Of a stretch of 64,000 nt of DNA, positions 4,024-60,442 are shown piece by piece. Source of the stretch: Deltaproteobacteria bacterium (GTDB lineage Bacteria; Myxococcota_A; Polyangia; Polyangiales; Houyiibacteriaceae); assembly GCA_034670305.1 (NCBI GenBank), contig JAXMNT010000010.1:64001-128000 (forward strand), read 5' to 3'. The translations under genes were made by a program, and so were the position numbers. Numbering within the stretch: the first letter of the stretch is position 1; the number at the start of each line of letters is the position of its first letter. A model generated the notes under the pieces. The model had not been told where the DNA came from. It searched no databases and saw only the letters and a list, made by a program, of their open reading frames with translations.

Positions 4024-4045
4024 CCCCAATCTCAACGTGAAGGTG

Positions 4046-4388
4046 CCCAGGTGGGGAGGAGGCCGCAGGCCGGGAGGGGGAACGCTTCCCCCTCAGAAAC
4101 AACGGACGCCGAATTAGGGCCGCCAGTCCCGCGAAGCGGGCCAGGCCACGCCCAGCGCCAGCGAGTCAGGCATTTCCACCCGTGCACCTGCGCAGCCCGC
4201 AGGGCGAGCAACTGGTGCACTCCCCAAGTGCGTCGCAGAGCGCCTCAAGGAGCGCGTGGACGCGCGCAGCCGCCAGATGCTCCAAGTGCTCTTCAACTGT
4301 ACTCGGAGAGCATGGGCGGCGAGCACGTGCACGCAGCGACGGGCGCGAATTAGGGCCGCCAGTCCCGCGAAGCGGGCCAGGCCCGTAG
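4046..4388 (+). repeat. Structured dispersed repeat, locus 1 (small hairpin element plus one full 236-bp unit and a partial unit)
   Basis: GAATTAGGGCCGCCAGT recurs at 4111 and 4347 (period 236). Near-identical to 48204-48761. Contains several stem-loops and lies between convergent genes. Confidence 0.9.
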
Positions 4389-4396
4389 TGGATCAA

Positions 4397-17981: not shown

Positions 17982-17984
17982 CTC

Positions 17985-19175: not shown

Positions 19176-19972
19176 CACTCGATCCTCATGATGGTTTCCA
19201 TTGTCTGTCGCCGACGCTGAATCTTCTGCCGGAACTCGGCTTCGATGAGGTCGGTGTCGGTCGTCTCGGGCACACCCTCGACGATGGCCACATCGTCGGG
19301 GTTTCGAAGCACGAGCTGCAGCAGCCCGCGGTCCCGCGCGTGGGTGAGCATGGTGGCCTGTTCGAGCGTCACCGCAAGGCTGACGTCTCGGCCGCGTCGG
19401 CTGGAGCTGGCCTGGTTCTCGTCGGCCTGGGTCTGGTCGGGACCACCGGTGTCGGTGCCGACCGCGAGCACGAGCACGTTCTGAAGCAGAGGCACGGTGA
19501 CGCGGGTCTCGTCGACGGATCCCGGCCGCGTGGCCGTGAGCAGCACATCCACGCGGTCGCCCGCACGGAGCAATCCACCGAACGCACTGGTGACACCGGT
19601 GCGAACGGTCATGGCACGCATGCCCTCGCGCAACAGGGTCGCCAGGTCGCGGCGCTCGCTGCCCGAGGTCGCCAGGTCGGACCACAACAAGGATTGGTTG
19701 GCACGAAGGGCGGCGTTCACGCGCACCCCGAGCACCCGACGCAAGTCGGAGACCCGCACGTGGCGATCCTCGACGTACGCTTCAGGGAGCGGTCGGGCAG
19801 AGACGTTGGTGTCGGTCAGGGGTTCCCCGATCGCCATGTCCGAGTTGACCATGAGGACTTCGATGGGTTCTCCACCAGCGGCCTCGGTTTCGAATCGACG
19901 CATGTACAGGCCGAAGAGAGCGACTCCGACGAGTGCGACGACTACAGCTGCAAGCAGCGCGGTCTTGTTCAT
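19175..19972 (-). CDS. cpaB: Flp pilus assembly protein CpaB/RcpC
   Basis: N-terminal TM, SAF-like domain, GMRAMTV, GDRVDVL, LLQNVLVLAVG, LVLRNPDD. Confidence 0.92.
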   Translation of the reverse strand: MNKTALLAAVVVALVGVALFGLYMRRFETEAAGGEPIEVLMVNSDMAIGEPLTDTNVSARPLPEAYVEDRHVRVSDLRRVLGVRVNAALRANQSLLWSDLATSGSERRDLATLLREGMRAMTVRTGVTSAFGGLLRAGDRVDVLLTATRPGSVDETRVTVPLLQNVLVLAVGTDTGGPDQTQADENQASSSRRGRDVSLAVTLEQATMLTHARDRGLLQLVLRNPDDVAIVEGVPETTDTDLIEAEFRQKIQRRRQTMETIMRIE

Positions 19973-23803: not shown

Positions 23804-24810
23804 TCGCACAGCTCGCTTCGATGGCAGGCCGAACCTCGGCCGACGTGGCATTCCAGGTCGCGGTTGATGCAGGTGTTGCCGCAGGGCTTGCCGATGTTGC
23901 AGACCGGGCTGCAGGAAGTGACGCAGTCGCGGCTGCTGCTCGAGCCTCCGCCGGAGCTCGCGGTGTCGGCTTCGCCACCCTGTTCGCTCGCGTACTGGTA
24001 ACCGGCGCCCTGGTAGATGAGGGTGCTCTCGGCACGCAGGATCTGGAAACACGCGCCGGACAAGCTCGCCACCGCCGTGAAGAGGCCCGCGCCCTCGCCG
24101 AAGATCGGCATCATCGCGCCCGAGAGCTCGTGGTAGCCGTCCTCGCTCTGCGAGCTGAGGTTGATCGGCGAATCGCACATGAGCTGCGCCGCGAACGGCA
24201 CCGCGCAGTTGAAGAGGTACGTCACGCGGGTCGTGATCGGGACCGGCGTCACGGGCGGCGGTGAGGCAGGAAAGTTCTGCGCGCCACTCGTCTGGACCCC
24301 AGTCGCACCGGGTCCGGTCGGGAACGTCACCGCGACCGCGGTGAAGTTGTAGATGAGCCCGCTCAAGAATCGATAGTGGGCGTCGCCGATCGCGCCGCGC
24401 ACACTCTCGGCGCCGCCCCGACCGAGGTGGGAGGGCTGAGGCGCGATGCCGAGCAACGGCTTGTACGCCGCCCAGCGGATCGTGTTGAGGCGCGGATCCC
24501 CGTTGAAGGAGACCGCGCCGAAGATGTCGAACCCACCGAGCGTGGAGGGCGTGCCGCCGTCTCCCGAGTCGCTCCAGTTGATCTGGTGTTTGGGGGTCTC
24601 GCTGCCGCGGTAGCGCGCGGGATCGTCCGGAAGCACGACCACCGCCGAGCGCGCAGCGGCGTCGGCGGAGTGTTGAACGATGACGTCGGCCCCGTAGAGG
24701 AGACCGATCTGGGTCATGCCCAACCACAGCGTGAAGAGCGGCATGAACACCACCAGGAACTCGACGTAAACCGCGGCGCGGGTGTCGTCTCGAAGGCGCC
24801 GTCTCTTCAT
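23800..24810 (-). CDS. TadE-like minor pilin with C-terminal Cys-rich module
   Basis: DDTRA|AVYVEF, VQHSADAAARSAVV TadE motif, C-terminal 8-Cys segment. Confidence 0.82.
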   Translation of the reverse strand: MKRRRLRDDTRAAVYVEFLVVFMPLFTLWLGMTQIGLLYGADVIVQHSADAAARSAVVVLPDDPARYRGSETPKHQINWSDSGDGGTPSTLGGFDIFGAVSFNGDPRLNTIRWAAYKPLLGIAPQPSHLGRGGAESVRGAIGDAHYRFLSGLIYNFTAVAVTFPTGPGATGVQTSGAQNFPASPPPVTPVPITTRVTYLFNCAVPFAAQLMCDSPINLSSQSEDGYHELSGAMMPIFGEGAGLFTAVASLSGACFQILRAESTLIYQGAGYQYASEQGGEADTASSGGGSSSSRDCVTSCSPVCNIGKPCGNTCINRDLECHVGRGSACHRSELCE

Positions 24811-24814
24811 GGCG

Positions 24815-25354
24815 TCAGCTCCAAAGTTCGGGGTGGTGGGAAAGTACGGATACGGAAGCGCCGATGAAGAACGCGCCCCCCATACGAACGGTGCTCATCA
24901 ACGAAGGAGGAACACGGCGGCGCCACGATTTGGGCATGAGGGGGTTGAGGGCCAGGAACACAGAATTGGAGAGGGTGCGGAAGAGTTTGCCTTCGTAGGC
25001 GAGTCGTCCAAACGCATAAAGCGCAGCCACGACGAAACCTGCGAGCTCGAACTCGAGCCCATTGGTCAGTCCCGCGACCGCGCCCATTGCGGCGACCAGT
25101 TTCAGGTCGCCTCCTCCGATCGCACGCAACTTCCAAAGAAGCCACGGGACGAAGGCACAGGCAGCCATCCCTCCAACGGAGGATGCCAGCCCCCAGAAAC
25201 CCTCTGCCAGCCCCCAAACGAGGGGGCCGATGAACAGAGGTGGGTACGTCAACCAGTTGGGGATTTCCCCCTTGCGCCAATCAGTGACTGCGGCAACGAA
25301 CGCGAGTCCGACCGCAGCACACTGACCAGCGAGGGTGACGTCCAGAGAGGGCAC
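24815..25354 (-). CDS. cpaA: Prepilin peptidase CpaA/TadV (A24)
   Basis: AAVTDWRKGEIPN and IGGGDLKL catalytic Asp motifs. Confidence 0.9.
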   Translation of the reverse strand: MPSLDVTLAGQCAAVGLAFVAAVTDWRKGEIPNWLTYPPLFIGPLVWGLAEGFWGLASSVGGMAACAFVPWLLWKLRAIGGGDLKLVAAMGAVAGLTNGLEFELAGFVVAALYAFGRLAYEGKLFRTLSNSVFLALNPLMPKSWRRRVPPSLMSTVRMGGAFFIGASVSVLSHHPELWS

Positions 25355-25378
25355 GTCGGTTACGCCAACGTGCTGCGG

Positions 25379-25567
25379 TCAGCTACCGCGCAAGCCCTCG
25401 ATGTCGGTCGTCGACGTCGTCACGTTCTCACGTACCGCGTCGCCGAAGCTGCGCCACACCGTGATGGCGAGCACCGCGATGAGGACGAGAATGATGATGT
25501 ACTCGACCGTCGAAAGTCCTTCTTCGTTGGAAGCGAGCTTGGTCTGGAGGTTTCTTACGATCTTCAT
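25379..25567 (-). CDS. flp: Flp major pilin
   Basis: NEEG|LSTVEY Flp motif, 62 aa, hydrophobic helix. Confidence 0.92.
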   Translation of the reverse strand: MKIVRNLQTKLASNEEGLSTVEYIIILVLIAVLAITVWRSFGDAVRENVTTSTTDIEGLRGS

Positions 25568-25630
25568 TGTGGTGTCACCCTTGGTTTGGTCCGGTTTGGG
25601 GGTCCCGGCTCAGCCGGGTACCGCTCCACA

Positions 25631-25861
25631 TCATGGGATGGGGAGCAGAATCACGAGTTCTACGTAGTCGTAGAGGTTCAGGAGAGGGGTTCCGAGCGTC
25701 ACGACCGCGGCCGCGCCGCCAATCGTCACCATGCTGGCGAGCGTGAGGTACTCGACGAAGATGGCGCCGGTGGTGTCGTCGCGAAGGCTCTCGGCTTTCC
25801 GAGTGCGCGTGCGCTTCAACCAGCCGCCCGTAGCGGCATCTTGCAAAAGTCGTCCAGCCAT
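25631..25861 (-). CDS. Flp-like small pilin
   Basis: DDTTG|AIFVEY motif with a hydrophobic C-terminus ending LLPIP. Exact start uncertain. Confidence 0.7.
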   Translation of the reverse strand: MAGRLLQDAATGGWLKRTRTRKAESLRDDTTGAIFVEYLTLASMVTIGGAAAVVTLGTPLLNLYDYVELVILLPIP

Positions 25862-25967
25862 GCGGCGGGCACCATTCTCCCGACCTTGGTGTACTCCGGT
25901 TCCAGCGAGGCTGTCAACGGGTACCGATATGGTGGAAGCGAAGGTCATTGGGAACGGGGACCTCTAG

Positions 25968-25983
25968 TGCAACCGCAGTGCCA
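25968..25983 (-). promoter_or_regulatory. sigma54 promoter of the flp/tad operon
   Basis: Minus strand TGGCAC-TGCGG-TTGCA is a perfect -24/-12 consensus, with a lower-GC upstream region. Confidence 0.85.
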
Positions 25984-26311
25984 TCTCTGCAAACCTTAGA
26001 GATCTCCCATTAACCCCACGATCTTTGGATCGGCGAGCAGCGATCGGGACGGAGTGTCGCGATCCGTAGGAGACTTAAAACCCATTATGGGGTCAGCGGT
26101 CCCCAGCTGTACAAAGCTTGCACACTGTTTCTTTTCTCGAAGGAATGGGCCCGATCGGATCGGAAAACGCCGCAATCGTGCCGTGGCCTCCAAGGACACA
26201 CCGATCGGGGCGAAGAAATGCGATCTAGCGGTCGAGGTTTGCTCGAGCCCAAAGCCGGACGCCCGTGGCGAAGCCGTATCCGAACTGCGGTGGGGTGCGA
26301 TATGTTGCAGC

Positions 26312-27598
26312 ATGCGTTTTGTCCTGATCGGGTGTGGGTGCCTTCTGGCGTGCAGTGGCGGGGAGTCGAGGGAGCGCAGCGCGGTGGCGTTGGCGGTTGG
26401 CATCAACGACGTGTGCGTGATCAGTGGCGAAACCTCTGCAGCCGAGGACGCGGGCCAGGACGCGGGCCAGGACGCGGGCCAGGACGCAGGCCAGGACGCG
26501 GGCAGCCTGGAAGACGCCGGCGTGCTCGAGGATGCGGGGCTGCTGGAAGACGCTGGATCCCCCGAAGACGCTGGGGTGGACGCCGGTTTGGTCGACCTGG
26601 ACGCTGGGTCGTCGGGCGATGCCGGTCCCGCGCCGGTCGCCGTCAGTGGCCAGGTCTCCTGCTGGGGCAACGGTCAGTCGCCCCTCCGGCCCACTGACGG
26701 GATGCGCAGCGCCTCTCAGATCACGCTCGGTGCTGCGCGCTGCTTCATCGACGATGGCGAGCTGCTCTGCCTCGGCCAGAACGACGATGGGGAGCTCGGC
26801 GACGGGACCACCGAAGATCGGGAGCGGGCGGTGGGCCTGCCTACGCTTCGCCGCGCCGAGTTCGTGCAGACCAGCCGCTTCGGGGCCCAACACTTCACGT
26901 GCGCCATCGTGGAGGGAGAAGTGTGGTGTTGGGGCGCCGGCGACCGCGGTCAGCTCGGCGACCGCACGACCGACACCCGCTCGACTCCGGCTCGGGTCCG
27001 CGGGATCTCCGCCGCGACGGCGCTGACGCTCGGGGCCGAACACGCATGCGTACTCGAAGGCGGACAGCCGTTCTGCTGGGGCGCGGGCACGCTCGGCCAG
27101 CTCGGCAACGACATGTTGTTCGACCAGGACGCGCCGGTGGGCGTCGAACTCACGGACGTCCTCTCGATCGCGGCCGGCGGCTACCACACCTGCGCGGTGA
27201 CCTCCGATGGCATCGTCCACTGCTGGGGCGACTCGAGCCAAGGCCAGCTCGGCGTGGCCATTCCTGGGGACGATGGGTTCCCGACGCCCATCGCCATCTT
27301 CGGTGTCGCCGACGCGGTGTCGGTCGCGGCGGGTGCGGCCCACACCTGCGCCCTCTCCGCCGGCACGATGTTCTGCTGGGGTGCCAACGACGCGGCCCAA
27401 ACCGGCGAGAGTGGCGTCACCGTCCGCCGCACCCCCGTGAGCCCTGAGATCGCCAACGTGGTCCAGATGGGCCTCGGCGCCCGTTTCACCTGCGCCCTCA
27501 CCAGCGAAGGCGCCGTTCTCTGCTTCGGCGCCAACGACCTCGCCCAACTCGGCTCCCCCGGCGCCGACCGCGTCCGCCCCCAGACCGTCCGCTTCTAA
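26312..27598 (+). CDS. RCC1-repeat lipoprotein with DAG-repeat linker
   Basis: Lipobox LLAC, repeated CWG...GQLG / HTCA units, (DAGQ)n 12-bp repeats. Confidence 0.88.
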   Translation: MRFVLIGCGCLLACSGGESRERSAVALAVGINDVCVISGETSAAEDAGQDAGQDAGQDAGQDAGSLEDAGVLEDAGLLEDAGSPEDAGVDAGLVDLDAGSSGDAGPAPVAVSGQVSCWGNGQSPLRPTDGMRSASQITLGAARCFIDDGELLCLGQNDDGELGDGTTEDRERAVGLPTLRRAEFVQTSRFGAQHFTCAIVEGEVWCWGAGDRGQLGDRTTDTRSTPARVRGISAATALTLGAEHACVLEGGQPFCWGAGTLGQLGNDMLFDQDAPVGVELTDVLSIAAGGYHTCAVTSDGIVHCWGDSSQGQLGVAIPGDDGFPTPIAIFGVADAVSVAAGAAHTCALSAGTMFCWGANDAAQTGESGVTVRRTPVSPEIANVVQMGLGARFTCALTSEGAVLCFGANDLAQLGSPGADRVRPQTVRF

Positions 27599-27610
27599 GT
27601 CGTCAGACCA

Positions 27611-27937
27611 GCGTCGGCTCCGGCGTCGGCATCGGCTCCGGCGTCGGCTCCGGCTTCGGCTTCGGCGTCGGCTTCGGCATCGCCATCGGCTTCGGCGTCG
27701 GCATCGGCATCGGCATCGGCCTCGGCATCGGCTTCGGCGTCGGCTTCGGCATCGCCATCGGCGTCGGCATCGGCATCGGCGTCGGCGTCGGCATCGGCTT
27801 CGGCTCCGGCGTCGGCATCGGCATCGGCTTCGGCATCGGCTTCGGCATCGGCTTCGGCATCGGCCTCGGCTTCGGCTTCTGCTTCTGCTTCGGCGTCGCC
27901 TTCGGCTTCAGTATCGGCTTCGGCTTCGGCGTCGGCC
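27611..27937. repeat. Hexamer tract T1 (GGCTTC/GGCGTC/GGCATC)n
   Basis: Fills the gap between convergent stops at 27598 and 27939. Confidence 0.95.
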
Positions 27938-27938
27938 T

Positions 27939-29819
27939 CTAACGCTGGCGCCGTCGCAGCCCGACCATCGCCACGAAGACCCACGCCGCCCCCGCGCCCG
28001 CGCCCCCACCGACGCTGCACCCGCCGCCCCCAGCCGCCTCGGGCTCCGGCGGCGGCACGCAGAGCAGTTCGCCCTCGTGGTCGTCGCAGACGGTGCCGAC
28101 GTCGCATCCGCCGGCCGCCCCACAACTCCGGGTGCAGGTGCCGCCCGAGTCACGGACCACGCACCGGCCGCTCAAACACTCGGCGTCGACGCCGCATGCT
28201 TCGCCGAGCACGGCGCCCGCCGGCACGCAGCGTTCCCCGTCGCACTCGAAGCCGTCGGCGCAGTCACCGGCCGAGGGGCAGCGGGTGGTGCAGACCGTGC
28301 CGCCTTCGGTCGCGGTGCACTCGCGCTCGCCGGCGCAGTCCATCGCGTCGACGCAGCGCGCGCCATCCGAACCGAGGTCGCCGCGCTCACACAATCCGCT
28401 GCGGCAGTGAAATCCATCCGCGCAGTCGGGCGGGCACGCCGTCGTGCAGTACCCCTCCGCATGGCAGTTGCCGGACACACACTGTTCCGCCGCGTCGCAC
28501 GCATCGCCGAGGCCCCGAGCTTCCCCGAGGATCGCCGGATCGACGCAGCCGCCGCACGCACCGTCCGGCGCCGCGCATGCCCGATCGATCGGACATTGAC
28601 CGGCGCCGCCTTCGCAACGGTGCACGCATCGGCGGTTGCCGTCGCCGGGATCGACGCAGGCCAGACTTGCGCAGTCGGTGTCGGCCGCGCAGGTCTCGCC
28701 GTCGGGGGCGGCGCCACGCACGCCGGCCACGCAGGTCCCCTCGCAGCCACTGGTCGGCGCGCAGTACGCGCCGGGCGTCGCGATCGAATCGCCACCGAAC
28801 GGATGATCGATCGAAGCGCAGGTATCGACCGGCTGCCGCGGATCGCACGCATGGGTGCAGACCCGTCCGGCCGGCGTGTCTCCGCAGACAACCGGATCGT
28901 CGAGCAACCCGCGCAAGCCGAACCCGAACCGTTCCGGCAGTTGCGCGAAGGCGCAATCGTCGTCGGTTTCACACGCCCCGCCGAGCGGCTGACAGGTCTC
29001 GTCGATCGTGCCGTCGCAGTCGTCGTCGACCGAGTTGCAGGCCTCGTCCGACACGCCAGGGCAGTCGCCCGCTTCCAGCAACGCTTCATCCACGATGCCA
29101 CTGAGCCGATCGATCCGGTTGTGGCCGTCTCGGGAGCTCGGACAACTCTCGGCCTGACCGAAACTCGCGACCCCCACGATGCGGCGCGGCGAGCCCTCGA
29201 GGATCATCGGGCCACCCGAGTCGCCGGAGCAGATGTTCATCGACGAGTAGAGCACGTTGGCGTCGATCGAGTTGAGCGTGCCCGTCGTGAGGTACTTCGT
29301 GCCGGAGCCGCCTTCGGGTGTCTGTCCGTAGCCGATGAACGTGAAGGTCTCGCCCACGAGCGCGCTCGGGTCCTCGCGCATCATTTCCATGGGCGCGACG
29401 TCGGGGAGGTTGCCGTCCGCGTCGGGACGGATCGTGACCACGCCGACGTCCTGACCAATGAGCCCAGTGAGCAGACCGTCGTCTCGGTAGGTGCCCGGCG
29501 TCGTGTCCACGCGTCGAATGCGGTAGTCGACGGTGTTCCGTACGTCTCGTCCGACGCCGATGGAGAGCAGCCCGAGCGCGTGGGGCCGCCCGAGACCCGC
29601 GCCCTGCACACAGTGTTTGGCGGTGAGCACGACCGTCGGCGAGACGAAGGTGCCGGTGCACAGACCCACCCCGCCGACCAGCTTCACGAGCACCACGCTG
29701 TGTTCGTCCGGAGCCAGGGTGCCGTCGACGATCTCCGCCCGCGAGGCGCCGATGTCCTCGTCGGGTCCGACCACACAACCGACCCCAAGGAGCACAACCA
29801 GCCACGGAACATGTTTCAC
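27939..29819 (-). CDS. S1 (trypsin-like) serine protease with Cys-rich repeats and MYXO-CTERM sorting signal
   Basis: LTAKHC, DVGVV and CSGDSGGP triad motifs. C-terminal GGGGCSV-hydrophobic-RRRQR. Confidence 0.9.
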   Translation of the reverse strand: MKHVPWLVVLLGVGCVVGPDEDIGASRAEIVDGTLAPDEHSVVLVKLVGGVGLCTGTFVSPTVVLTAKHCVQGAGLGRPHALGLLSIGVGRDVRNTVDYRIRRVDTTPGTYRDDGLLTGLIGQDVGVVTIRPDADGNLPDVAPMEMMREDPSALVGETFTFIGYGQTPEGGSGTKYLTTGTLNSIDANVLYSSMNICSGDSGGPMILEGSPRRIVGVASFGQAESCPSSRDGHNRIDRLSGIVDEALLEAGDCPGVSDEACNSVDDDCDGTIDETCQPLGGACETDDDCAFAQLPERFGFGLRGLLDDPVVCGDTPAGRVCTHACDPRQPVDTCASIDHPFGGDSIATPGAYCAPTSGCEGTCVAGVRGAAPDGETCAADTDCASLACVDPGDGNRRCVHRCEGGAGQCPIDRACAAPDGACGGCVDPAILGEARGLGDACDAAEQCVSGNCHAEGYCTTACPPDCADGFHCRSGLCERGDLGSDGARCVDAMDCAGERECTATEGGTVCTTRCPSAGDCADGFECDGERCVPAGAVLGEACGVDAECLSGRCVVRDSGGTCTRSCGAAGGCDVGTVCDDHEGELLCVPPPEPEAAGGGGCSVGGGAGAGAAWVFVAMVGLRRRQR

Positions 29820-33740: not shown

Positions 33741-33804
33741 GACGGGGCCGGCCAGAGTGGGTCCGACTCGGTGCTTGGCAAGGCCGTCCGAGTCGATAGA
33801 GGAC

Positions 33805-34021
<217 letters not shown>

Positions 34022-34049: not shown

Positions 34050-35140
34050 TACGGCAGCAGGTTGAGGCGGCCTTGGCGGTAGCCGCTGGGATCGAGATGC
34101 ACTCTCTGGAAGCCGGTGGCGCGGAGCGCGCATTCGATCTCGGCGAAGAGGTCGCGGGCGCGGGGGAGTTCGTCTTGGCCGACTTCGAGGCTGGCCTCTT
34201 CTCCGAACCAGCGGACGCGGACCACGCGGAAGTCGAGCGCGCGCATTGCGCGTTCGGCGGCAGCGACTTGGGCGAGGCGCGCAGCGGTGATCTCGGTGCC
34301 GTAGGGAAAGCGGCTCGAGAGGCAGGCGAGCGCCGGTTTGTCCCAGACCGGCAGACCGAGTGCGTGGGCCGCCGCGCGGATGTCCGCTTTGGTGAAGCGG
34401 TGGTCGTCGAGCGGGGAGCGCACGCCGAGTTCCTTGGCGGCTTTGCGTCCCGGACGGTGGTCGCCCCGATCGTCGAGGTTGAACCCGTCGACGACCACCG
34501 CGAAGCCATGCTCCGTCGCGAAGCGGCGGGCCGCACCGTAGACCTCGGTCTTGCAGAAGTAGCAGCGGTTCTTCGGGTTGGTCGTGTAGCGCGCGTCGTC
34601 GAGCTCGTGGGTGTCGACCAGCGCATGCGGCGCGCCGAGCGACGCGGCGATCTCGGCCGCGTGCGCGCGCTCCTGGGGATCCAGGCTCGCAGACACCGCA
34701 GTGAATGCGTGCGCCCTCCCCGGCCCGAGGGCACGCACCGCCTCGGCGAGCAGATACGACGAGTCGACCCCACCACTGAAACACACGAGCACGGACGGCT
34801 GCGACGACAACCAAGTCCGCAGCCCAGAAGCGGAACCGGAACCGGAACCGGAAGCGGAACCGGAGGCGGAAGCGGAAGCGGAGGCGGACGCGGAAGCGGT
34901 ACCGGAAGCGACAGCGGAAGCGGTACCGGAAGCGACAGCGGAAGCGGAACCGGAAGCGGCTTCGGCGTCGGAATCGGCTTCGGCGTCGGAATCGGCTTCG
35001 GCGTCGGCGTCGGCTTCGGCTTCGGAATCGGCTTCGGCTTCGGCTTCGGCTGCGGCTTCGGCTTCGGCGTCGGCGTCGGCGTCGGCTTCGGGATCGGCCC
35101 CGCCGCCACGAACCCCACGCACTCGCTCAACCGGCGTCAC
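34049..35140 (-). CDS. larE: LarE, ATP-dependent sulfur transferase (NPN cofactor biosynthesis)
   Basis: PP-loop [22 protein letters not shown] and [10 protein letters not shown]. Likely GTG start overlaps the larC stop, with a repeat tract in frame in the N-terminus. Start uncertain. Confidence 0.9.
34829..35098. repeat. Hexamer tract T3, (GCGGAA)n then (GGCTTC)n, quasi-palindromic
   Basis: Read directly from sequence. Lies within the probable larE reading frame. Confidence 0.93.
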
Positions 35141-37055: not shown

Positions 37056-37110
37056 CGCGCGCACGGTATCAGCGCGATGGGTACGCACCAATCCGAACCG
37101 GAACTCCAAC

Positions 37111-37396
37111 GGCTTCGGCTTCGGCGTCGGGGTCGGGGTCGGGGTCGGATTCGGCTTCGGCTTCGGCCTCGGCTTCGGCTTCGGCGTCGGTTTCGGCTTC
37201 GGCGTCGGCTTCGGCTTCGGCGTCGGCTTCGGCGTCGGTTTCGGTTTCGGCCTCGGCGTCGGCGTCGGCTTCGGCGTCGGCTTCGGCTTCCGCTTCGGCT
37301 TCGGCTTCGGCTTCGGCTTCGGCTTCCACTTCGGCGTCGGCGACCGCTTCCGCGACCGCTTCCGCTTCCGCTTCCGCTTCGGCTTCCGCTTCCGCT
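37111..37396. repeat. Hexamer tract T4 (GGCTTC/GGCGTC)n then (CGCTTC)n
   Basis: Between the aminopeptidase stop and the larB start. Confidence 0.93.
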
Positions 37397-38983: not shown

Positions 38984-39580
38984 GTCGCGGTCGCGGTCGC
39001 GGTCGCGGTCGCGGTCGCGGTCGCTGTCGCCGTCGCTGTCGCTGTCGCGGTCGCTGTCGCGGTCGCTGTCGCTGTCTCTGTCGCTGTCTCTGTCGCTGTC
39101 TCTGTCTCTGTCGCGGTCTCTGTCGCTGTCGCTGTCGCTGTCTCTGTCTCTGTCTCTGTCTCTGTCTCTGTCTCTGTCTCTGTCTCTGTCTCTGTCTCTG
39201 TCTCTGTCTCTGTCTCTGTCGCTGTCGCTGTCGCTGTCTCTGTCTCTGTCTCTGTCGCTGTCTCTGTCTCTGTCTCTGTCTCTGTCTCTGTCTCTGCTTC
39301 GGGCGGAACCCGATGCCGAAGAAGCCGAAGCCGAAGCCGAAGCCGAAACCGATCCCGAACCCGAACCCGAAGCCGAACCCGAAGCCGAACCCGAAGCCGA
39401 ACCCGAAGCCGAACCCGAAGCCGACCCCGACCCCGACCCCGACGCCGAAGCCGAAGCCGAAGCCGACCCCGACCCCGAAGCCGACCCCGAAGCCGACCCC
39501 GAAGCCGAACCCGAAGCCGAACCCGAAGCCGACCCCGATGCCGAAGCCGATCCCGACCCCGATCCCGAAGCCGAATCCGC
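38984..39580. repeat. Hexamer tract T5 (GGTCGC)n-(TGTCGC/TGTCTC)n-(GAAGCC/GAACCC)n, about 600 bp
   Basis: Between the DUF362 stop and the aminopeptidase start. Confidence 0.95.
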
Positions 39581-43287: not shown

Positions 43288-43608
43288 CCCGTGCCCGTGC
43301 CCGTGGTTGTTCGGACGCCGAAGCCGAAACCGAAGCCGAAACCCGACGCCGAAGCCGAAGCCGAAGCCGACGCCGAAGCCGAAGCCGACGCCGAAGCCGA
43401 CGCCGACGCCGAATCCGACGCCGAATCCGAGCCCGATGCCGCGGCCGCTTCCGCTTCCGCTGCCGCTTCCGCCGCCGCTTCCGCTTCCGCTTCCGCTGCC
43501 GCTTCCGCCGCCGCTTCCGCTTCCGCTTCCGCTGCCACGGCCGCTTCCGCTGCCGCTTCCGCTTCGGCTGCCGTCGCCGCTGCCGCTTCCGCTACCGCTT
43601 CCGCTTCC
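43288..43608. repeat. Hexamer tract T6, (CCCGTG)n then (GAAGCC/GACGCC)n then (GCTTCC)n, quasi-palindromic
   Basis: Between convergent stops at 43264 and 43618. Confidence 0.93.
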
Positions 43609-46429: not shown

Positions 46430-46684
46430 GGGCCACCCTAGCACCAGCGGCCGCGCAGGCCCCTGTCTGCTGCAACCCCTCGTTGGGCACCGCCCCGCGC
46501 TTCTCGCTCTACTGCGTGGAGACCTTTCAGTTGGTGCACGATGGGGGGCGTGGTCCCCAACGAACCGCCCGCCCGCAGCGATCTCGACGGCATGGCGGGG
46601 ACCAATGTCCCCGGCACCTGGGGTCCCGGGGGCGACAATTCCCAGATCGTCCCTGGCGCGCTTCTTGAAGAAGCATCTGCCACG

Positions 46685-48202
46685 ATGCGTTCACTCTCCC
46701 GCTCATTCGCTTTCGTCGCCGCCTTCCTCGCCCTCGCCGGATGCGCGGCCGAGACCCTCGGGTCCAGCCGCGACCGCGACCCGGACCGCCCGGACGGCGA
46801 CGAGTGCGTGGTGGACCGCGACTGCGTCACCGGCCTCGTGTGCGACCGGGGCCTCTGCCTCCCGCCGATCGACGAGCCGACCGAGCGCATGGACTGCGAC
46901 ACCGAAGCGGACTGTCCCACCGACTACACCTGCGAAGACCGCGGCGCGGTGCGCATCTGCATCCCGCCGCCCGTCGACGGCCCCAGCTGCGGCCACTGCC
47001 CCTTCCCGAACGAGTGCCGCGACGGGGTCTGCATTCCGCCGAGCGACGACGGCGACGTCTGCGAGTTCGACCCGGAGTGCGGCGAAGGCATGCTCTGCAT
47101 CGCCGGCCGCTGCACCACCGACCCGCGCATTCCCCTCGACTGCGTGGACGCCGTCGACTGTCCGGAAGGCCTGATCTGCAGCGACATGGGCGAGTGCATC
47201 TGCACCGCGACCGCGGACTGCCCCGTCGGCACGCTGTGCCGGATGGGCATGTGTTTGCCGGACGACGGCGGCTGCGTGGGCGACGACGAGTGCCCGATGG
47301 GCATGCTCTGCGAAGGCGGCGAATGCCGCGACGGATCGACCTGCGACGTCGTGCACCCGGATCTCTCGACCCCAGCCACCTGGGAAGTGGCCTCCATCTA
47401 CAACTTCCGCGAAGCCCTTCCGAGCTGGCTCAGCGACTTCCTCGACGCGGTCGCCGGTCCCTTCCGCTTCCTCGCTGGCGACAGCGACGACCCGGATCTC
47501 GGCCTGCCCGGATTCATCGAAGACGCCATCGGCTCCGCCATCCGCCGCTGGGCCGAAGACAACCTGCCTCCGTACGCGCTGTCGGCCATGGGTGGCATCG
47601 CGGACCTCAACGACATCCTCTCCACGTGGATCGTGGACGAACGCATGGAGCTGACCCCGAACGGGATCCGCGACGGCTACCAGGGCACCCACGAGTGGGT
47701 CCAGGTGAGCTTCGAGTACCGGGACATGCGTGTCATCGGCCGCCCGGAAGACATCGTCGGATGGACCTTCGAGCCGGAAGACTTCCAGGCCCAGGCCGTG
47801 TGCGGCGTCTTCAACATCGATCGTCACCCGGTCGAAGTCGGCATCGGTGCCATCATCGCGTGGGCGGTCGACGCCATCGTCTACGAGGCGTCCGATCACC
47901 GCTACCGCGACACCGAAGCGATGCTCAACAGCCTCCGCACCGGCCTGTGCTCCGAAGCCCGCCGGATCGCCGACGGCATCTACGACGGCGCCGGCCCGCT
48001 CGCCGAGTCCTGGTGCAACAGCGAGCTCGACGACCTCGCGACCCGCATGATCATGGCGCTCGACGAAGCCTTGCTTCGGCTGAACCTGATGCGCCTCAAG
48101 GGCCACAGCCCGATCGTCTCGGGCACGAACATGGAGCCCGGCGTCTGGGAAGGTTCGCTCGTGGGCGGCGACTTCTCCGGCAGCTGGAGCGCCGACCGCT
48201 AG
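46685..48202 (+). CDS. Cys-rich repeat lipoprotein
   Basis: Lipobox LAGC, multiple C-x4-C-x5-C-x4-C repeats, globular C-terminal domain. Confidence 0.82.
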   Translation: MRSLSRSFAFVAAFLALAGCAAETLGSSRDRDPDRPDGDECVVDRDCVTGLVCDRGLCLPPIDEPTERMDCDTEADCPTDYTCEDRGAVRICIPPPVDGPSCGHCPFPNECRDGVCIPPSDDGDVCEFDPECGEGMLCIAGRCTTDPRIPLDCVDAVDCPEGLICSDMGECICTATADCPVGTLCRMGMCLPDDGGCVGDDECPMGMLCEGGECRDGSTCDVVHPDLSTPATWEVASIYNFREALPSWLSDFLDAVAGPFRFLAGDSDDPDLGLPGFIEDAIGSAIRRWAEDNLPPYALSAMGGIADLNDILSTWIVDERMELTPNGIRDGYQGTHEWVQVSFEYRDMRVIGRPEDIVGWTFEPEDFQAQAVCGVFNIDRHPVEVGIGAIIAWAVDAIVYEASDHRYRDTEAMLNSLRTGLCSEARRIADGIYDGAGPLAESWCNSELDDLATRMIMALDEALLRLNLMRLKGHSPIVSGTNMEPGVWEGSLVGGDFSGSWSADR

Positions 48203-48203
48203 G

Positions 48204-48761
48204 CCCCCAGGTGGGGAGGAGGCCGCAGGCCGGAGGGGGAACCCTTCCCCCTCAGAGAGTACAGGTCGAGCGAAGCGAGCCAGGCCATCTCACAACGCCA
48301 GCGAGTCAGGCGACTCCACCCGTGCACCTGCGCAGGCCGTAGGCCGAGCAACTGGTGCACTCCCCAAGTGCGTCATAGAGGCGGCGGGAGTGCCTTCACC
48401 GCGCGCAGCCGCCAGTTGTTCCAATCGCTTCTTCAGTGCGTCCAATGCTCGGGCGGCGAGCACGTGAAGGTGCTCTGGACGCCGAATTAGGGCCGCCAGT
48501 CTCGCGAAGCGAGCCAGGCCTCGAACAGCGCCAGCGAGTCAGGCATCTCCACCCGTGCACCTGCGCAGGCCGTAGGCCGAGCAACTGGTGCACTCCCCAA
48601 GTGCGTCACAGAGCGCCTCAAGGAGCGCGTGGACGCGCGCAGCCGCCAGATGCTCCAAGTGCTCTTCAACTCTACTCGGAGAGCATGGGCGGCGAGCACG
48701 TGCACGCAGCGACGGGCGCGAATTAGGGCCGCCAGTCGAGCGAAGCGAGCCAGGCCCGTAG
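48204..48761 (+). repeat. Structured dispersed repeat, locus 2 (small hairpin element, variant unit B, unit A, partial unit)
   Basis: GAATTAGGGCCGCCAGT at 48484 and 48720 (period 236). Homologous to 4046-4388 and ends at the same CCAGGCCCGTAG. Confidence 0.92.
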
Positions 48762-48813
48762 CGGTCAGTGAGTAACGTGAACCGGTGGCGATTGCGTAGT
48801 AGGCTCCGGGTCG

Positions 48814-49719
48814 ATGCAGCAGTCCCGAATTGGCTACGCCATCCTCCTGATTCTCGCGAGCACGGTGGCCATCCCCGCGTACGCGCAACCAGAGGCCACC
48901 CCACCTCCGCCGAACGAGGACGACGGCGAAGACCACACGATGCGGACCGAGGGACTGAACGACGAGGCGGGGCGCAGCGCGTTCCGCGTCGGCCAAACGC
49001 TCTTTCAGGAAGGCCGCTTCGTCGAAGCCGGCCGCGAGTTCGAACGGGCATTCGAACTCTCCCAGCGCGCCTCGTTGCTGTACAACGCCTACCTCGCCTA
49101 CCGCGATGGCGGGCAGCTCGGCGACGCTGCGCGTTGCCTCGAGGGGTACCTGGACGCCAACCCGGAGGTCGCCGATGCCGAGCGCCTGGGGCACCGGCTC
49201 GCCGCGATGCGCAATACGCTGGCAGAGCAGGAACGCGCCGCCGCTGCCACCGAGGAGGAACGAGCGCGCCTCGCCGCGGAACGAGAAGCCGAGCAGGCCG
49301 CCGCGGCCGCGGAGCAGGAGCGCCTGCGGCTCGAAGCGGAAGAACAGCGACGGCGGGCCGAGTCGGCCGAGACCGCATTGAACCCGATCGGGTACGCGGT
49401 CGGAGGCGCGGGGCTGGCGCTGCTCGGCGGTGCGCTGGCGATGGGTCTTGTCGCCAACAGCCGCGTGGGATCGCTCGAAGACAACTGCCCCGACGATCGG
49501 TGCATCCCCTCCTTCGACCTCGCTGGCGAACGGGACAAAACCGACCGCGCCATCGTGGTCACGGACGTCTTGCTCTTCACGGGCATCGCCACGCTCGCGG
49601 TGGGCGTGGTTCTGCTCTTCGTCGGCCGCGGCTCAGGCGACGACGAAGCACCCGCCGCGACGGCCGGGGCCATGTGCACCGGCGAAGGATGCGCCTTCAG
49701 CGTCCAGGGGAACTTCTGA
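48814..49719 (+). CDS. TPR protein with coiled coil and C-terminal TM pair
   Basis: Signal peptide, TPR (FQEGRF...LLYNA), typical myxobacterial architecture. Confidence 0.8.
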   Translation: MQQSRIGYAILLILASTVAIPAYAQPEATPPPPNEDDGEDHTMRTEGLNDEAGRSAFRVGQTLFQEGRFVEAGREFERAFELSQRASLLYNAYLAYRDGGQLGDAARCLEGYLDANPEVADAERLGHRLAAMRNTLAEQERAAAATEEERARLAAEREAEQAAAAAEQERLRLEAEEQRRRAESAETALNPIGYAVGGAGLALLGGALAMGLVANSRVGSLEDNCPDDRCIPSFDLAGERDKTDRAIVVTDVLLFTGIATLAVGVVLLFVGRGSGDDEAPAATAGAMCTGEGCAFSVQGNF

Positions 49720-54111: not shown

Positions 54112-54252
54112 CGAACGCGCATCCTACGCGAAGCACCGCCACACACCAGCCGGGCATCGCGCCTGGCGGCGCTGGCAAGGGAACGGTGGCTCGCTTCGCT
54201 CGCCTCCGTTTTCTGACACACCCATGTGGATCATGGGAGGGTGGCACCTTCG

Positions 54253-56064
54253 ATGACGCTCCTGAGCCTACCCACCGCCGCCGCGCGCATCCGCGAGACG
54301 CGCCGGGCGGCTTCGACGCGGCGTGCGCCGAGCCCGTACTTCTTCGTATGCGGCGCGGGCATCTCGGTCCCATCGGTGCCCCTCGCGTGGGCGATCGAGA
54401 AGGAATGTCGCGAGCGGGCCGAGTCGCTCGGACTGACCACCGCGGACGGTCCGGACGATCCGGCGGGCGGGTACTCGTTCTGGCTCGAGCAAGCGTACCC
54501 AGACCCCGACCAGCGGCGGCTCTACTTCCGCGAGAAGATCGAAGGCCGCCCTCTGACCGACGCGAACCTTCGGCTCGCGCACCTGCTCTCCGACGGCGCG
54601 CTCACCCGCTTCTTGGTCACCACCAACTTCGACGACTTCGTCAGCCGCAGCCTCCACTTGTTCGGGCAGCCGCACGTGGTGTGCGACCACCCCGCGACCA
54701 CCGCGCGCATCGATCTGGACTCGACCGACGTGCAGATCGCGCACGTGCACGGCACGTACTGGTTCTACGATCTCGTGAACACCGACGTGGAGATCTCGGA
54801 CCGCGCCAAGGGCGTGCGCGCGGGGACCGGCATGAGCGAGCTGCTCGGTGACCTCCTGCGTGGACGCGCGCCGCTCGTGCTCGGCTACTCCGGCTGGGAG
54901 GGCGACGTGTTGATGAACGCACTGAAGCAACGGCTCAAGGCCGGGCTGCGGCATCAGCTCTACTGGTTCTGTTACAACCGCGACGCGCTCGTCTCGCTCC
55001 CGACCTGGCTGACCGGCCACCCCAACGCGTGTTTCGTGGTGCCGGAAGACGGCGAGACCCTGAGCGCCGACCGGGTGCTCGACGAGCTGCTCCGGGTCTT
55101 CAAGGTCGACGCCCCGCCGCTCACCCGCGACCCGCTCGGCTTCTTCGCGGATCGTCTCCGAGAGAGTGCGCCGCGCCGCGCGCCGGACGCACCACCGGAT
55201 CTGTACTTCTTCGAAGACTTGGTGCGCCGGGTCGAAGATGCGGCCCGCCGCTCGACCGACGGCCACGCGGTGATCGCCGCGATCGAGTCGGTCCGCGATG
55301 CCGTCCGCCGCGGCCACTACGCGAGCGCTGCGCAACGGGCCTCCCGCATCTCGCTCGCGGGACTGAAGAAGGCGCTCCGGCGCAACCTCGCCGACGCGCT
55401 CTGGCCCGCGGTCAGCCGCGGAGGCCGGAGCGCCGCGGAGGACCTGCGGATCGCCGATGCGTTCCTCCGGATCGTGGACGCGGGCCCTTCCGGGATCGTC
55501 TCGTCCGGTCGCTACGCGGCCGTGCTGATCGGCCGGGTCGGCGCACTGCACCGACAAGGCCACCACCGCCGGACCCGCGCCGCCGTCGCCGACGCGCTGA
55601 CCCGCCTCGGCTCGATGCTCTCGCGCATGCCCCGCGCCCACCACCGGCTGCTCCGCCTCGAAGCCCGCAGCCTCGCCGCGGAACGCCGCTTCAAAGCCGC
55701 GCTCGTGAAGTACGAGTCGCTCCCCGGCGACTTCGATTCCGCCACCGACGCGCGACTGCGGGTCGCGGTGTGCGGAGGCGAGCGCGAACGCGCCGCCGTG
55801 CTCGCCGAGCTCGACCGGCTGCCGGAGGCCGAGGTCATCCTCGACGTGCTCACCCGGCGATTGAAGAAGTGGCGCGCCCGAACGGCGCAACGGGAGCTGG
55901 TGCTCGTGCTGAGCCTGCGCGCCGACCTCGCGAGCGCACTCGGCCACGAAGACGCCGCCGACGAACACCGCCTCGCCGCCGCCGAAGTCGCCGGGGAACT
56001 CGCCGCGCACCCAACCGGGGTCCCGAGCCGCACCGTGAGTGGCTTCCCCGCCCCCAGCGAGTAG
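54253..56064 (+). CDS. SIR2-like (SIR2_2) domain protein with helical/TPR-like C-terminus
   Basis: CGAGIS, VTTNFDD, HVHG and VLGYSG...D sirtuin motifs. Confidence 0.85.
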   Translation: MTLLSLPTAAARIRETRRAASTRRAPSPYFFVCGAGISVPSVPLAWAIEKECRERAESLGLTTADGPDDPAGGYSFWLEQAYPDPDQRRLYFREKIEGRPLTDANLRLAHLLSDGALTRFLVTTNFDDFVSRSLHLFGQPHVVCDHPATTARIDLDSTDVQIAHVHGTYWFYDLVNTDVEISDRAKGVRAGTGMSELLGDLLRGRAPLVLGYSGWEGDVLMNALKQRLKAGLRHQLYWFCYNRDALVSLPTWLTGHPNACFVVPEDGETLSADRVLDELLRVFKVDAPPLTRDPLGFFADRLRESAPRRAPDAPPDLYFFEDLVRRVEDAARRSTDGHAVIAAIESVRDAVRRGHYASAAQRASRISLAGLKKALRRNLADALWPAVSRGGRSAAEDLRIADAFLRIVDAGPSGIVSSGRYAAVLIGRVGALHRQGHHRRTRAAVADALTRLGSMLSRMPRAHHRLLRLEARSLAAERRFKAALVKYESLPGDFDSATDARLRVAVCGGERERAAVLAELDRLPEAEVILDVLTRRLKKWRARTAQRELVLVLSLRADLASALGHEDAADEHRLAAAEVAGELAAHPTGVPSRTVSGFPAPSE

Positions 56065-58821: not shown

Positions 58822-59385
58822 TCATGCGTCGAGCGCGGCCTTGATGTCGGCTTCTTCGACGACTCGACTGTTGGCGATCAACTCCTTCACGAAGTCGTCG
58901 TAGGTGAGGCCTTCGTCGTCGCAGTACTGCTTCACCGCGGTCGGCAACATGTAGCCGGCGCCGGTGCGCACGAACGATCCGGTGTCGATCTCGCGCTCGA
59001 CCGCGATGCGGACTTCGCCCTTCGGGATCTTCTCGCCGGTGACGATGCAGCTGGCCCGACCGGTCGGCGCGCGGTCTGCGTAGGGGAACGCGCCGGGCTT
59101 CTTCTTCTCTTTCTTGGCGCCCTCTTCGATCAGCTTGTCGATCTCGGCGCGGTCCGGGATGTCCCCGTCGAACGCTTCGATCGCCTTCTTCACCTTGGAC
59201 GGGAACTTCTTCGCGGCGGCTTTGAGCTTGTGCCAGCGGTACGAGATGCTGCCGCTCGACGAGAAGGTGTTCACGAACGCTTCGCCGAACCGAAGTTCGC
59301 CCTTGGCGATCTTCTCGCCGGTGCTCCGGCACTTGGCGCGCCCCGACGGCGAAACCTCGATGATGTCGATCAACTCCTCGGCCAT
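58822..59385 (-). CDS. Tandem PARP-type zinc-finger-like protein (degenerate ligands)
   Basis: Two repeats, SPSGRAKC...KIAKGELRFG and APTGRASC...KIPKGEVRI. GGAGGAG precedes the ATG at 59385. Confidence 0.8.
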   Translation of the reverse strand: MAEELIDIIEVSPSGRAKCRSTGEKIAKGELRFGEAFVNTFSSSGSISYRWHKLKAAAKKFPSKVKKAIEAFDGDIPDRAEIDKLIEEGAKKEKKKPGAFPYADRAPTGRASCIVTGEKIPKGEVRIAVEREIDTGSFVRTGAGYMLPTAVKQYCDDEGLTYDDFVKELIANSRVVEEADIKAALDA

Positions 59386-59531
59386 TGCACTTCTCCTCCA
59401 GCGGCGCCCATCGGTTGGGGCGGCGAACCGGCGTACCGTACGAGAGAGTTCCACCGATCGACAAGAACGATGGTCTTCCCGGTTTGGGGGACGTTTGGCA
59501 GACGCCCCATGGCCCGTGCTATGAGCCCTGC

Positions 59532-60206
59532 ATGCGAACCCGAAGCTTCTGTCTTGTACTTGGCCTTCTCGCGGCGTGCGGCGGGGACGACGACGGCGGG
59601 GTCGACGCCGCGACGAACGACGCAGGCGCGGTCGATGGTGGTCAGGACGCCGGCGGCGGCGAGGACGCCGGCGCAGGCGAAGACGCCGGCGGGGACGAAG
59701 ACGCGGGCGAAGGCGAAGACGCTGGCGGGGACGATGCGGGCCTGGACGCGGGTGCGATGGACGCAGGCACGGACGCGGCGATGCTCGCCGACGGAGAGTG
59801 CCGCTCCGAAGCCGATTGCACGGGCTTCATGTCCTGTTTCCGTCCCGGCGACCCCTTCTGCGGGATCTGCATGGACCCGCCGACCTGCGCCGACTCGGAC
59901 GAGTGCTCCGACGGACAGGTCTGCGACGCCCCGAGCCGGTCCGCCTGTCTGTGCGGCGGAGGCGGTATGATCTGCCAGGCCCACTGTTCCGAGCGCACCT
60001 GCGACGAAGGCCTCACCTGCGACGCCGACGGCCTCTGCAAAGCGACGGCCTGCACGAACGACGACGAGTGTCCCAGCGGCTTCGCGTGCGACGCGGAGAC
60101 CTGCGCACGCCGCACCTGCACCACCGACGCCCAATGCGCCGGCGCCTACTGCGTCCGCGGCAGCTGCTTCTCCGAACCCGGCTTCTGCTCCGTCCCGCCC
60201 GCTTGA
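59532..60206 (+). CDS. Cys-rich lipoprotein with DAG-repeat linker
   Basis: Lipobox LAAC, (EDAG) repeats, Cys repeats. Confidence 0.8.
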   Translation: MRTRSFCLVLGLLAACGGDDDGGVDAATNDAGAVDGGQDAGGGEDAGAGEDAGGDEDAGEGEDAGGDDAGLDAGAMDAGTDAAMLADGECRSEADCTGFMSCFRPGDPFCGICMDPPTCADSDECSDGQVCDAPSRSACLCGGGGMICQAHCSERTCDEGLTCDADGLCKATACTNDDECPSGFACDAETCARRTCTTDAQCAGAYCVRGSCFSEPGFCSVPPA

Positions 60207-60224
60207 CCTGAGGTCGACGGCAAC

Positions 60225-60442
60225 GGCTTCGGCTTCGGCTTCGGCTTCGGCTTCGGCGTCGGATTCGGCTTCGGCTTCGGATTCGGCTTCGGGATCGGAT
60301 TCGGCTTCGGCGTCGGCTTCGGCTTCGGATTCGGATTCGGGGTCGGCTTCGGGGTCGGCTTCGGGGTCGGCTTCGGGATCGGATTCGGCTTCGGGGTCGG
60401 ATGCGGGATCGGCGTCGGATCGGGCACGGGCACGGGCACGGG
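60225..60442. repeat. Hexamer tract T7 (GGCTTC/GGATTC/GGGGTC)n capped by (GGGCAC)3GGG
   Basis: Between convergent stops at 60206 and 60484. Confidence 0.93.

Follow-up and report, generated by a model that had tools for sequence, protein, structure and literature searches.

The 64,000-nt stretch analysed here (the window; positions 64,001 to 128,000 of contig JAXMNT010000010.1 in the Deltaproteobacteria bacterium assembly GCA_034670305.1) carries the same + strand element at two intergenic loci, locus A (4041–4391) and locus B (48201–48764). With a probability of roughly 0.55, the element is best explained as a mosaic repeat that is non-coding, lineage-restricted and comparable with the bacterial interspersed mosaic elements (BIMEs) or with BOX, its stems being under selection. 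It represents a new family within a well-known class of elements, not a new kind of system. Nor is it a simple segmental duplication, because the flanks of the two loci are unrelated, solo copies of its junction hairpin (J) are found and related copies exist elsewhere. An earlier note on this DNA, written from the letters alone, had pointed out the two loci and their paired motifs; its observation is confirmed, and all of its motifs and coordinates were recovered in the sequence.

The left edge of locus A lies 18 nt past the TGA of a carboxylesterase-like gene (3295–4023), and its right edge 6 nt short of the stop (CTA on the + strand, 4397–4399) of a convergent MFS-transporter gene (4397–5851, − strand). 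At locus B, the left edge overlaps the TAG stop (48200–48202) of the gene at 46541–48202, and the right edge is about 50 nt before the next + strand gene, which has a probable start at ATG 48814. The genes around locus A are unrelated to those around locus B. Identity between 4104–4391 and 48477–48764, which hold the type-2 unit and its two junctions, was 95 % over 288 nt; together with motif searches of the element in which only 0 to 0.46 matches each were expected, this places the repeat beyond chance. The edges are sharp and common to both loci, and are also seen in two of the related copies described below (P0002 and P0003, with a shared tail RPV(V/A)). Both loci close on CCAGGCCCGTAG (4377–4388 and 48750–48761), as the earlier note had reported, and the 236-bp period that it proposed was found from 4111 to 4347 and from 48484 to 48720. 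The start-to-start spacing of the variant unit B1 is 234 nt.

The layout consists of a head of about 55 nt, then one or two units of about 236 nt bounded by J hairpins, then a CCCGTAG tail, with about 200 nt of each unit lying between successive junctions. Locus A has one unit and locus B two, B1 of type 1 and B2 of type 2. Each unit contains two further hairpins, H1 and H2. The modules are as follows.

4041–4099, + strand: head of locus A, with mini-hairpin GGCCGCAGGCC at 4061–4071 and a 9-bp hairpin GAGGGGGAA-CGC-TTCCCCCTC at 4074–4094.
4100–4147, + strand: type-1 unit remnant GGACGCC and junction J1 of locus A, comprising GAATTAGGGCCGCCAGTC, CCCGC-GAA-GCGGG at 4128–4140 and GCCAGGCC.
4148–4346, + strand: type-2 unit of locus A, with H1 at 4182–4220 and its mini-hairpin GCCC-GCA-GGGC at 4195–4205.
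About 4254–4334, + strand: H2 of the same type-2 unit, with core strands CGCGCGCAGCCGCC at 4261–4274 and GGCGGCGAGCACGTG at 4315–4329.
4347–4391, + strand: junction J2 and tail of locus A, with the hairpin at 4364–4376 and CCCGTAG at 4382–4388.
48201–48258, + strand: head of locus B, with mini-hairpin GGCCGCAGGCC at 48221–48231 and hairpin GAGGGGGAA-CCC-TTCCCCCTC at 48233–48253.
48259–48286, + strand: truncated first junction of locus B, lacking GAATTAGGGCCGCCA, with hairpin CGAGC-GAA-GCGAG at 48267–48279 and then GCCAGGCC.
48287–48483, + strand: type-1 unit B1, with H1 at 48322–48360 and its mini-hairpin GGCC-GTA-GGCC at 48335–48345.
48388–48475, + strand: H2 of B1, with a 12-bp outer arm GAGTGCCTTCAC/GTGAAGGTGCTC that includes two G.T pairs, and core strands at 48400–48413 and 48452–48466.
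48484–48520, + strand: middle junction of locus B, with hairpin CTCGC-GAA-GCGAG at 48501–48513.
48521–48719, + strand: type-2 unit B2, with H1 at 48555–48593 and H2 at about 48627–48707.
48720–48764, + strand: last junction and tail of locus B, with hairpin CGAGC-GAA-GCGAG at 48737–48749 and CCCGTAG at 48755–48761.

J, the smallest building block, reads GAATTAGGGCCGCCAGTC, a 5-bp hairpin with a GAA triloop and then GCCAGGCC. It forms a REP-like hairpin of two tiers, in which an internal loop separates the outer stem from an inner stem that ends in a C-GAA-G mini-hairpin. In H1, GTGCACC...GGTGCAC encloses a GNA-triloop mini-hairpin of 4 bp, and H2 has a GCCGCC/GGCGGC core with an outer arm and a less regular apical part. 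The inner stems of H1 and H2 are both bordered by an asymmetric internal loop with GCGCAG as its 5′ strand and CGAGC as its 3′ strand, reading G-C, C-G, G.A, C-G and a bulged A before the inner stem; an internal-loop motif at both inner stems had been noted before, and GCGCAG...CGAGCA was found there. Type-1 unit B1 and type-2 unit B2 are 96 % identical over the 89 nt holding H1, and B1 diverges in a block at 48380–48480 that comprises the outer arm and apex of H2. The sequence GGACGCC, which ends the type-1 unit in locus B (48477–48483), is kept just before the first J of locus A, so that locus A looks like locus B minus most of a type-1 unit.

Two further complementarities were seen within the units. 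The 3′ strand of the H2 core (GGCGGC) is also complementary to the GCCGCC of the J about 30 nt downstream (4315–4364 and 48688–48737); because GGCGGC can pair with either partner, H2 and the hairpin between its 3′ strand and J would be mutually exclusive folds. The segment GAGCAACTGG of H1 is complementary to CCAG(A/T)TG(C/T)TC just past the H2 core, a match that was partly read by eye.

The stems are kept through changes on both sides. In J, CCCGCGAAGCGGG at 4128–4140 and 4364–4376 corresponds to CTCGCGAAGCGAG at 48501–48513, with one inner pair changed between C-G (locus A) and T-A (middle J of locus B). Within the GTGCACC...GGTGCAC stem, found at 4182–4220, 48322–48360 and 48555–48593, the mini-hairpin GCCCGCAGGGC at 4195–4205 corresponds to GGCCGTAGGCC at 48335–48345 and 48568–48578, its second pair being C-G in the former (locus A) and G-C in the latter (B1, B2). 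In the outer arm of H2, GAGTGCCTTCAC (48388–48399) and GTGAAGGTGCTC (48464–48475) flank the same GCCGCC/GGCGGC core as GCGTGGACG and CGTGCACGC do elsewhere; the type-2 arm has one G.G mismatch, and its replacement in B1 has 12 pairs, two of them G.T. The changes in J and H1, the enclosing stem and the arm swap had all been put forward in the earlier note, and each held.

The arms were compared with shuffled sequence by shuffling 16 nt on each side of the conserved H2 core 5000 times and comparing duplex energies. As RNA, the B1 (type-1) arm scored −22.9 kcal/mol where the shuffles averaged −8.5, and only 1 of the 5000 did as well; under DNA parameters 9 did. For the type-2 arm, 331–348 of the 5000 did as well under RNA parameters and 113–116 under DNA parameters. 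An RNAalifold consensus of the three units placed the B1 arm one column off and paired the J copies together, and its pair table was not used.

Related copies were found in public protein sets. An exhaustive phmmer search with the + frame open reading frame (ORF) at 4118–4432 returned P0002 (159 aa, E = 2.5e-4) and P0003 (249 aa, E = 5.6e-4), and a search with P0003 added P0004 (182 aa). A further match, P0001 (1613 aa, E = 1.3e-4), is a low-complexity repeat and was dropped as compositional. P0003 is encoded on a 16,860-nt NCBI contig and P0004 on an 820-nt ENA contig, and the Pfam entry of both is ‘-’. The three proteins align with the units only with frame switches (scores 213–305), and tblastn against the two loci gave E values of 3e-16 and 7e-22. 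Since the alignment needs frame switches, P0002 to P0004 are translations of non-coding relatives that differ by indels. They are thus spurious ORFs, and the element family extends beyond loci A and B.

The layout of the relatives, as read from these translations, follows that of the two loci. P0002 has a head, J, one unit, J and a tail; P0004 has a head, a degenerate J, a type-2-like unit, J and a type-1-like unit; and in P0003 about 90 residues separate the end of a type-2-like unit and its tail from a following J and type-1-like unit. Residues ~70–160 of P0003 resemble antisense tRNA T-arms (GESNSQ, ESRTP), as read from the protein letters only, and the element copies in P0003 may flank two tRNA genes on the opposite strand.

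Pairing in the relatives was scored at bases fixed by the amino acid, over five aligned unit copies. None of the 150 covered pairs of H1 and H2 was certainly non-canonical and 57 were certainly canonical, with the remainder undetermined. The H1 mini-hairpin pair is G-C in P0002, in unit 2 of P0003 and in unit 1 of P0004, and (C or T)-G in unit 2 of P0004, with no mismatched combination; in unit 1 of P0003 this mini-hairpin has seemingly lost one base per side. An outer pair of the type-1 H2 changes from T-A to C-G in P0003, through F>S (TTC>TCC) and E>R (GAA>[C/A]GA, with C by parsimony), and for four more single changes the partner is a wobble base that the translation does not reveal. The pairs that can be read in the relatives are consistent with selection on pairing, although they do not amount to a statistical test.

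The element has no coding signal. None of its 12 frame translations had a significant Pfam match, the best E values (0.096, 0.17 and 0.25) being far short of the cut-offs, and word-index protein searches with the frames 4024–4353 (+) and 4114–4392 (−) gave no match in the near-length range. GC content by codon position is flat in all six frames (0.60–0.76), compared with third-position GC (GC3) of 0.80–0.98 in likely genes, which were themselves chosen by GC3 of at least 0.80. The two periods of the element, 236 and 234 nt, are not multiples of 3. The description of a dispersed and tandem non-coding element in the earlier note was borne out. Comparison of the whole window with Rfam at gathering score returned nothing, as did a search of 47900–49000 at E ≤ 10; the earlier note, too, had not recognised the element as a named family. 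A simple scan for a sigma-70-like promoter and an intrinsic terminator found neither, other promoter types lying outside that scan.

No further unit was found in the window with an nhmmer profile of the units, and its two short matches were sites of solo J hairpins, listed here.

19129–19149, − strand: solo J, CAGTCTCGCGAAGCGAGCCAG, 21/21 identical to 48497–48517 (the middle J of locus B).
54186–54206, − strand: solo J-like hairpin with inner CGAGC-GAA-GCGAG, in which AACGG...CCGTT replaces GGGCC...GGCCC.

The first lies 25 nt past the TGA (19175–19177) of an RcpC/CpaB-like gene, on its sense strand and before a secretin gene. The second lies in a divergent intergenic region (54124–54216) and is only suggestive, because a random 5-bp complementary flank in a flexible register would arise with a chance of a few percent (a rough estimate). 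The J pattern CAGTCNNGCGAAGCGNGCCAG with up to 3 mismatches had 7 matches in comparison with 0.39 expected, two of the seven being the solo intergenic copies. All five J copies inside the arrays are direct.

A count of small hairpins that combine a stem of 3 or more Watson-Crick pairs, C-G closure and a GNA triloop gave 10 on the + strand and 0 on the − strand in the 915 nt of both loci. The 10 stand for only four independent sites in the element (head, J, H1 and the apex of H2). The background density in the rest of the window was 0.71 per kb per strand. In excerpts of PMC13037366, the d(GCGAAGC) mini-hairpin melts at 76.5 °C, compared with 39 °C for an RNA mini-hairpin. The one-strand GNA triloops and the stability of the DNA mini-hairpin together favour the + strand as the folding strand and, weakly, DNA over RNA. 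Whole-locus z-scores for DNA folding were −2.35 (+) and −0.80 (−) for locus B and −1.22 (+) and −1.93 (−) for locus A. RNA folding gave −1.8 to −2.0 for the + strand and −0.9 for the − strand of locus B, the sole locus with its − strand folded as RNA. GC skew gave no usable call of replication direction, as its sign flips inside the window. Cumulative GC skew climbs to ~24–28 kb and then drops, the skew passing from about +0.04 to −0.03, and this turn at 24000–28000 may reflect gene orientation or a replication landmark.

The element was compared with the known classes of small interspersed repeat. Repetitive extragenic palindromes (REPs) and their kin are found downstream of genes, between unidirectional and convergent ORFs, and REPs are tagged by an unpaired GTAG (or CGTC) that abuts one end of the palindrome, in the excerpted account of PMC3733652. 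As in the REPs and BIMEs outlined there, a short imperfect palindrome (J) occurs solo or in mosaics, the mosaics lie behind genes in short intergenic regions, and the sequence varies while the stems persist. J (~32 nt, GGGCC..CCGCGAAGCGG..GGCCC) fits the 20–40 bp imperfect palindrome of a REP and is twice solo, whereas the 236-nt unit does not fit. GTAG occurs once per array, after the last J, on the 3′ side and 8 nt past the foot of the hairpin, and is absent from the internal and solo J copies. In contrast to BIMEs, the J copies in the arrays are direct and not alternating, and a two-hairpin unit of ~200 nt fills the space between them in place of a short linker. Further differences from REPs and BIMEs are that no sequence likeness to known families was found and that no gene for a REP-associated tyrosine transposase (RAYT) was seen in the window. 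A scan of 160 ORF translations from the 64 kb for Y1_Tnp/HUH/RAYT/IS200-type and other transposases, integrases and reverse transcriptases likewise found none.

A REPIN is described in excerpts of PMC3337134 as two inverted REPs forming one long hairpin. No long inverted pair was found, and the element is not a REPIN, because its J copies are direct and GTAG is absent from the internal and solo copies and lies 3′ of the hairpin at the tail. The interpretation in the earlier note therefore stood in part: a structure-constrained non-autonomous repeat was retained, while membership of the REP/REPIN family was not, given the 236-nt units, the direct J copies and the misplaced GTAG.

The modular layout of BOX is boxA-(boxB)n-boxC in the part of PMC3049150 that sets it out. 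The fixed end modules, variable tandem internal modules, an internal module that folds largely alone and intergenic location described in that source all recur in the element. As in a BIME- or BOX-like mosaic, its modules are arranged with a variable number of internal units, and it is dispersed, intergenic and non-coding, the solo J copies included. It differs from BOX in an internal module five times longer, of two types with a swapped arm, and in that BOX has terminal inverted repeats and target-site duplications, of which none were seen in the element. For the same reason it is not a miniature inverted-repeat transposable element (MITE) in the strict sense.

Palindrome-associated transposable elements (PATEs) of IS200/IS605 type have subterminal imperfect hairpins, lack terminal inverted repeats and target duplications, insert 3′ of a fixed short target word and carry their structure on one strand. 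The element approaches this geometry. A distance of 15 nt separates its left end from the head mini-hairpin, and 12 nt separate its right end from the J hairpin. The hairpins are imperfect, with a bulge or mismatch, the structures are on one strand, and neither terminal inverted repeats nor target-site duplications were seen. Unlike in PATEs, the left and right hairpins do not resemble each other, the tandem internal units have no counterpart, and no TnpA was found in the window. The left flanks of the two loci are GAAGG and CTAGG, two sites being too few to establish a target word. A d(GCGAAGC)-type mini-hairpin occurs at single-strand initiation signals, namely the phage G4 origin and ssiA of RSF1010, in the excerpts of PMC13037366, and resembles the C-G-closed GNA triloops of the element (GAA, GCA, GTA and GGA) on one strand. 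Those are, however, single sites in replication origins, and nothing seen in the element points to a priming or origin role. No description of the element was found in the full-text literature on repeats of myxobacteria or Myxococcota, REPs, MITEs and stem-loops, or with four strings from the element.

As a mosaic repeat, the element could be maintained as follows. An enzyme encoded elsewhere would read the hairpins, most likely on single-stranded DNA (ssDNA), and spread the element in trans. Single-stranded DNA is the likely substrate because all ten C-G-closed GNA triloops are on one strand and are far stabler in DNA than in RNA. Unequal recombination between direct J copies would change the number of units. 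The distal arm of H2 can be exchanged provided that the replacement still pairs. Where transcription of a preceding gene includes the element, the hairpins may serve as a 3′ barrier on the RNA or as a terminator, a role known from REP, BIME and BOX. Interspersed structured repeats of this kind shape transcript ends, genome rearrangement and gene calling, and related copies have already been mis-called as proteins in public sets (P0002–P0004). The family is large for its kind, has clean stem-preserving changes and carries every C-GNA-G mini-hairpin on one strand, which makes it a workable case for deciding between an ssDNA and an RNA reading of such repeats. A covariance model of the element would clean up the annotation of the lineage.

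A number of observations weigh against the mosaic repeat with selected stems. The case for mobility comes solely from dispersal, since no gene for a mobilizing enzyme is present in the window, and neither terminal inverted repeats nor a target-site duplication was found at loci A and B, the flanks being inspected by eye. Whole-locus fold energies were only 0.8 to 2.35 sd below shuffles, with no consistent strand. Two of the three J hairpins of locus B are CGAGC-GAA-GCGAG, in which tandem G.A/A.G replaces two Watson-Crick pairs. Only three units are available in full as nucleotides, two of them near-identical, so the covariation consists of a handful of pairs, too few for a statistical test. 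In the relatives, 4 of 40 pairs of the J inner stem were certainly non-canonical (part of the G.A type, part from the degenerate first J), one J copy of P0004 has a certainly broken closing pair, the outer pairs of the head mini-hairpin are not kept in P0002 and P0004 (judged by eye), and most partner positions in the protein-derived copies are invisible wobble bases. In representative genome contigs scanned with the 18-mer GGTGCACTCCCCAAGTGC, seven loci were found, all in unrelated metagenome-assembled genomes and all seed-only chance matches. Plasmid and phage collections searched in distant mode gave no match to the element.

The alternative that survives best is that the element is an undescribed structured non-coding RNA (ncRNA), with one or several copies per locus, in which H1 and H2 would share a protein-binding loop, the H2 arm would tune specificity and the J copies would serve as processing or termination signals. 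We consider this possible though doubtful. It would explain why the stems are kept through two-sided changes and why one asymmetric internal loop occurs twice per unit, and the two G.T pairs of the B1 arm are tolerated on the + strand only. The folding strand is also the sense strand of the co-directional neighbour at all three judgeable sites (locus B and the two solo J hairpins), and the + strand has the better RNA fold z-scores when set against the − strand of locus B. However, Rfam had no match even at E ≤ 10, and neither a sigma-70-like promoter nor an intrinsic terminator was found in a scan blind to other promoter types. Variable unit number, truncated junctions, indels and solo J copies in unrelated contexts typify repeats and not RNA genes, C-GNA-G triloops are much weaker in RNA in the excerpted PMC13037366, and the tRNA-like stretches of P0003, known from reading the translation only, are on the opposite strand. 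A further proposal is that the units are undescribed structured modules of Myxococcota-like bacteria in which H1 and H2 present the GCGCAG/CGAGC loop to a dedicated protein and the exchangeable H2 arm carries specificity, which would make the element either a new class of arrayed ncRNA or a new hairpin-guided ssDNA mobile element with an enzyme of its own; we regard this as unlikely.

A neutral duplicated spacer, that is, intergenic DNA copied once and then duplicated in tandem with neither structural selection nor mobility, is improbable. It would fit the presence of only two composite loci in 64 kb, on the same strand and 95 % alike, the lack of an enzyme gene nearby and the weak folding z-scores, but it would leave unexplained the unrelated flanking genes, the sharp and identical edges in both loci and in P0002 and P0003, the solo J hairpins, and the related copies in other contexts, including beside tRNA-like sequence. 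A replaced arm that still pairs, as well as only 1 of 5000 shuffles does, would also be unexpected of a neutral spacer. Binding sites in double-stranded DNA for a regulator or nucleoid protein, in which GTGCAC and CACGTG palindromes would be the operators and hairpin formation incidental, are more improbable again: GTGCAC is present in every H1 arm and CACGTGCAC in the type-2 H2, but neither an unrelated replacement arm that pairs nor pair flips in 4-bp mini-hairpins would be expected of operators, and the asymmetry of 10 to 0 in GNA loops would be meaningless in duplex DNA. The remnant of a protein-coding gene or small-ORF array is barely credible, since the two frames open across a whole unit and the ORFs placed by gene callers over related copies (P0002–P0004) are set against the lack of a Pfam match to the element or to P0003 and P0004, the lack of a GC3 signal, a period not divisible by 3, relatives that align only with frame switches and word-index searches of two other frames that gave nothing.

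The window as a whole has a GC content of 67.8 % and a gene content that resembles a chromosomal region of a Myxococcota-like bacterium, with a Tad/Cpa pilus cluster and FHA, Ser/Thr kinase, RCC1, PEGA, RuvC and YebC genes; tRNA genes were not found in its 64 kb. A weak Atlas lead to Myxococcota scored 0.83, and the host is tentatively placed in that phylum. The Tad/Cpa-like cluster spans ~10.8–25.4 kb and includes genes for a secretin, RcpC, TadE, two T2SSF proteins and a prepilin peptidase. It also contains two paralogous T2SSE-type ATPase genes (10869–12545 and 16263–17984, both on the − strand), one with an FHA domain. Beside the solo J-like hairpin at 54186–54206 starts a gene for a SIR2_2-domain protein (PF13289, E = 4e-11; 54217–56061, + strand), and a zf-PARP domain protein is encoded 3 kb beyond it (58825–59826, − strand).

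Long hexanucleotide tandem arrays (CGGCTT, GAAGCC, GTCGCT, CTGTCG and relatives), of 20–52 copies each, were seen at 27614–27936, 33804–33988, 34827–35091, 37110–37396, 38984–39579, 43317–43608 and 60224–60420. One frame matches Trypan_PARP at E = 4e-6, far below the cut-off. The arrays fall within ORFs or at their ends, and these ORFs encode unrelated enzymes, among them a peptidase S9, an AIR carboxylase-like protein and an M17 aminopeptidase, and several proteins therefore seem to bear long low-complexity dipeptide-repeat extensions.

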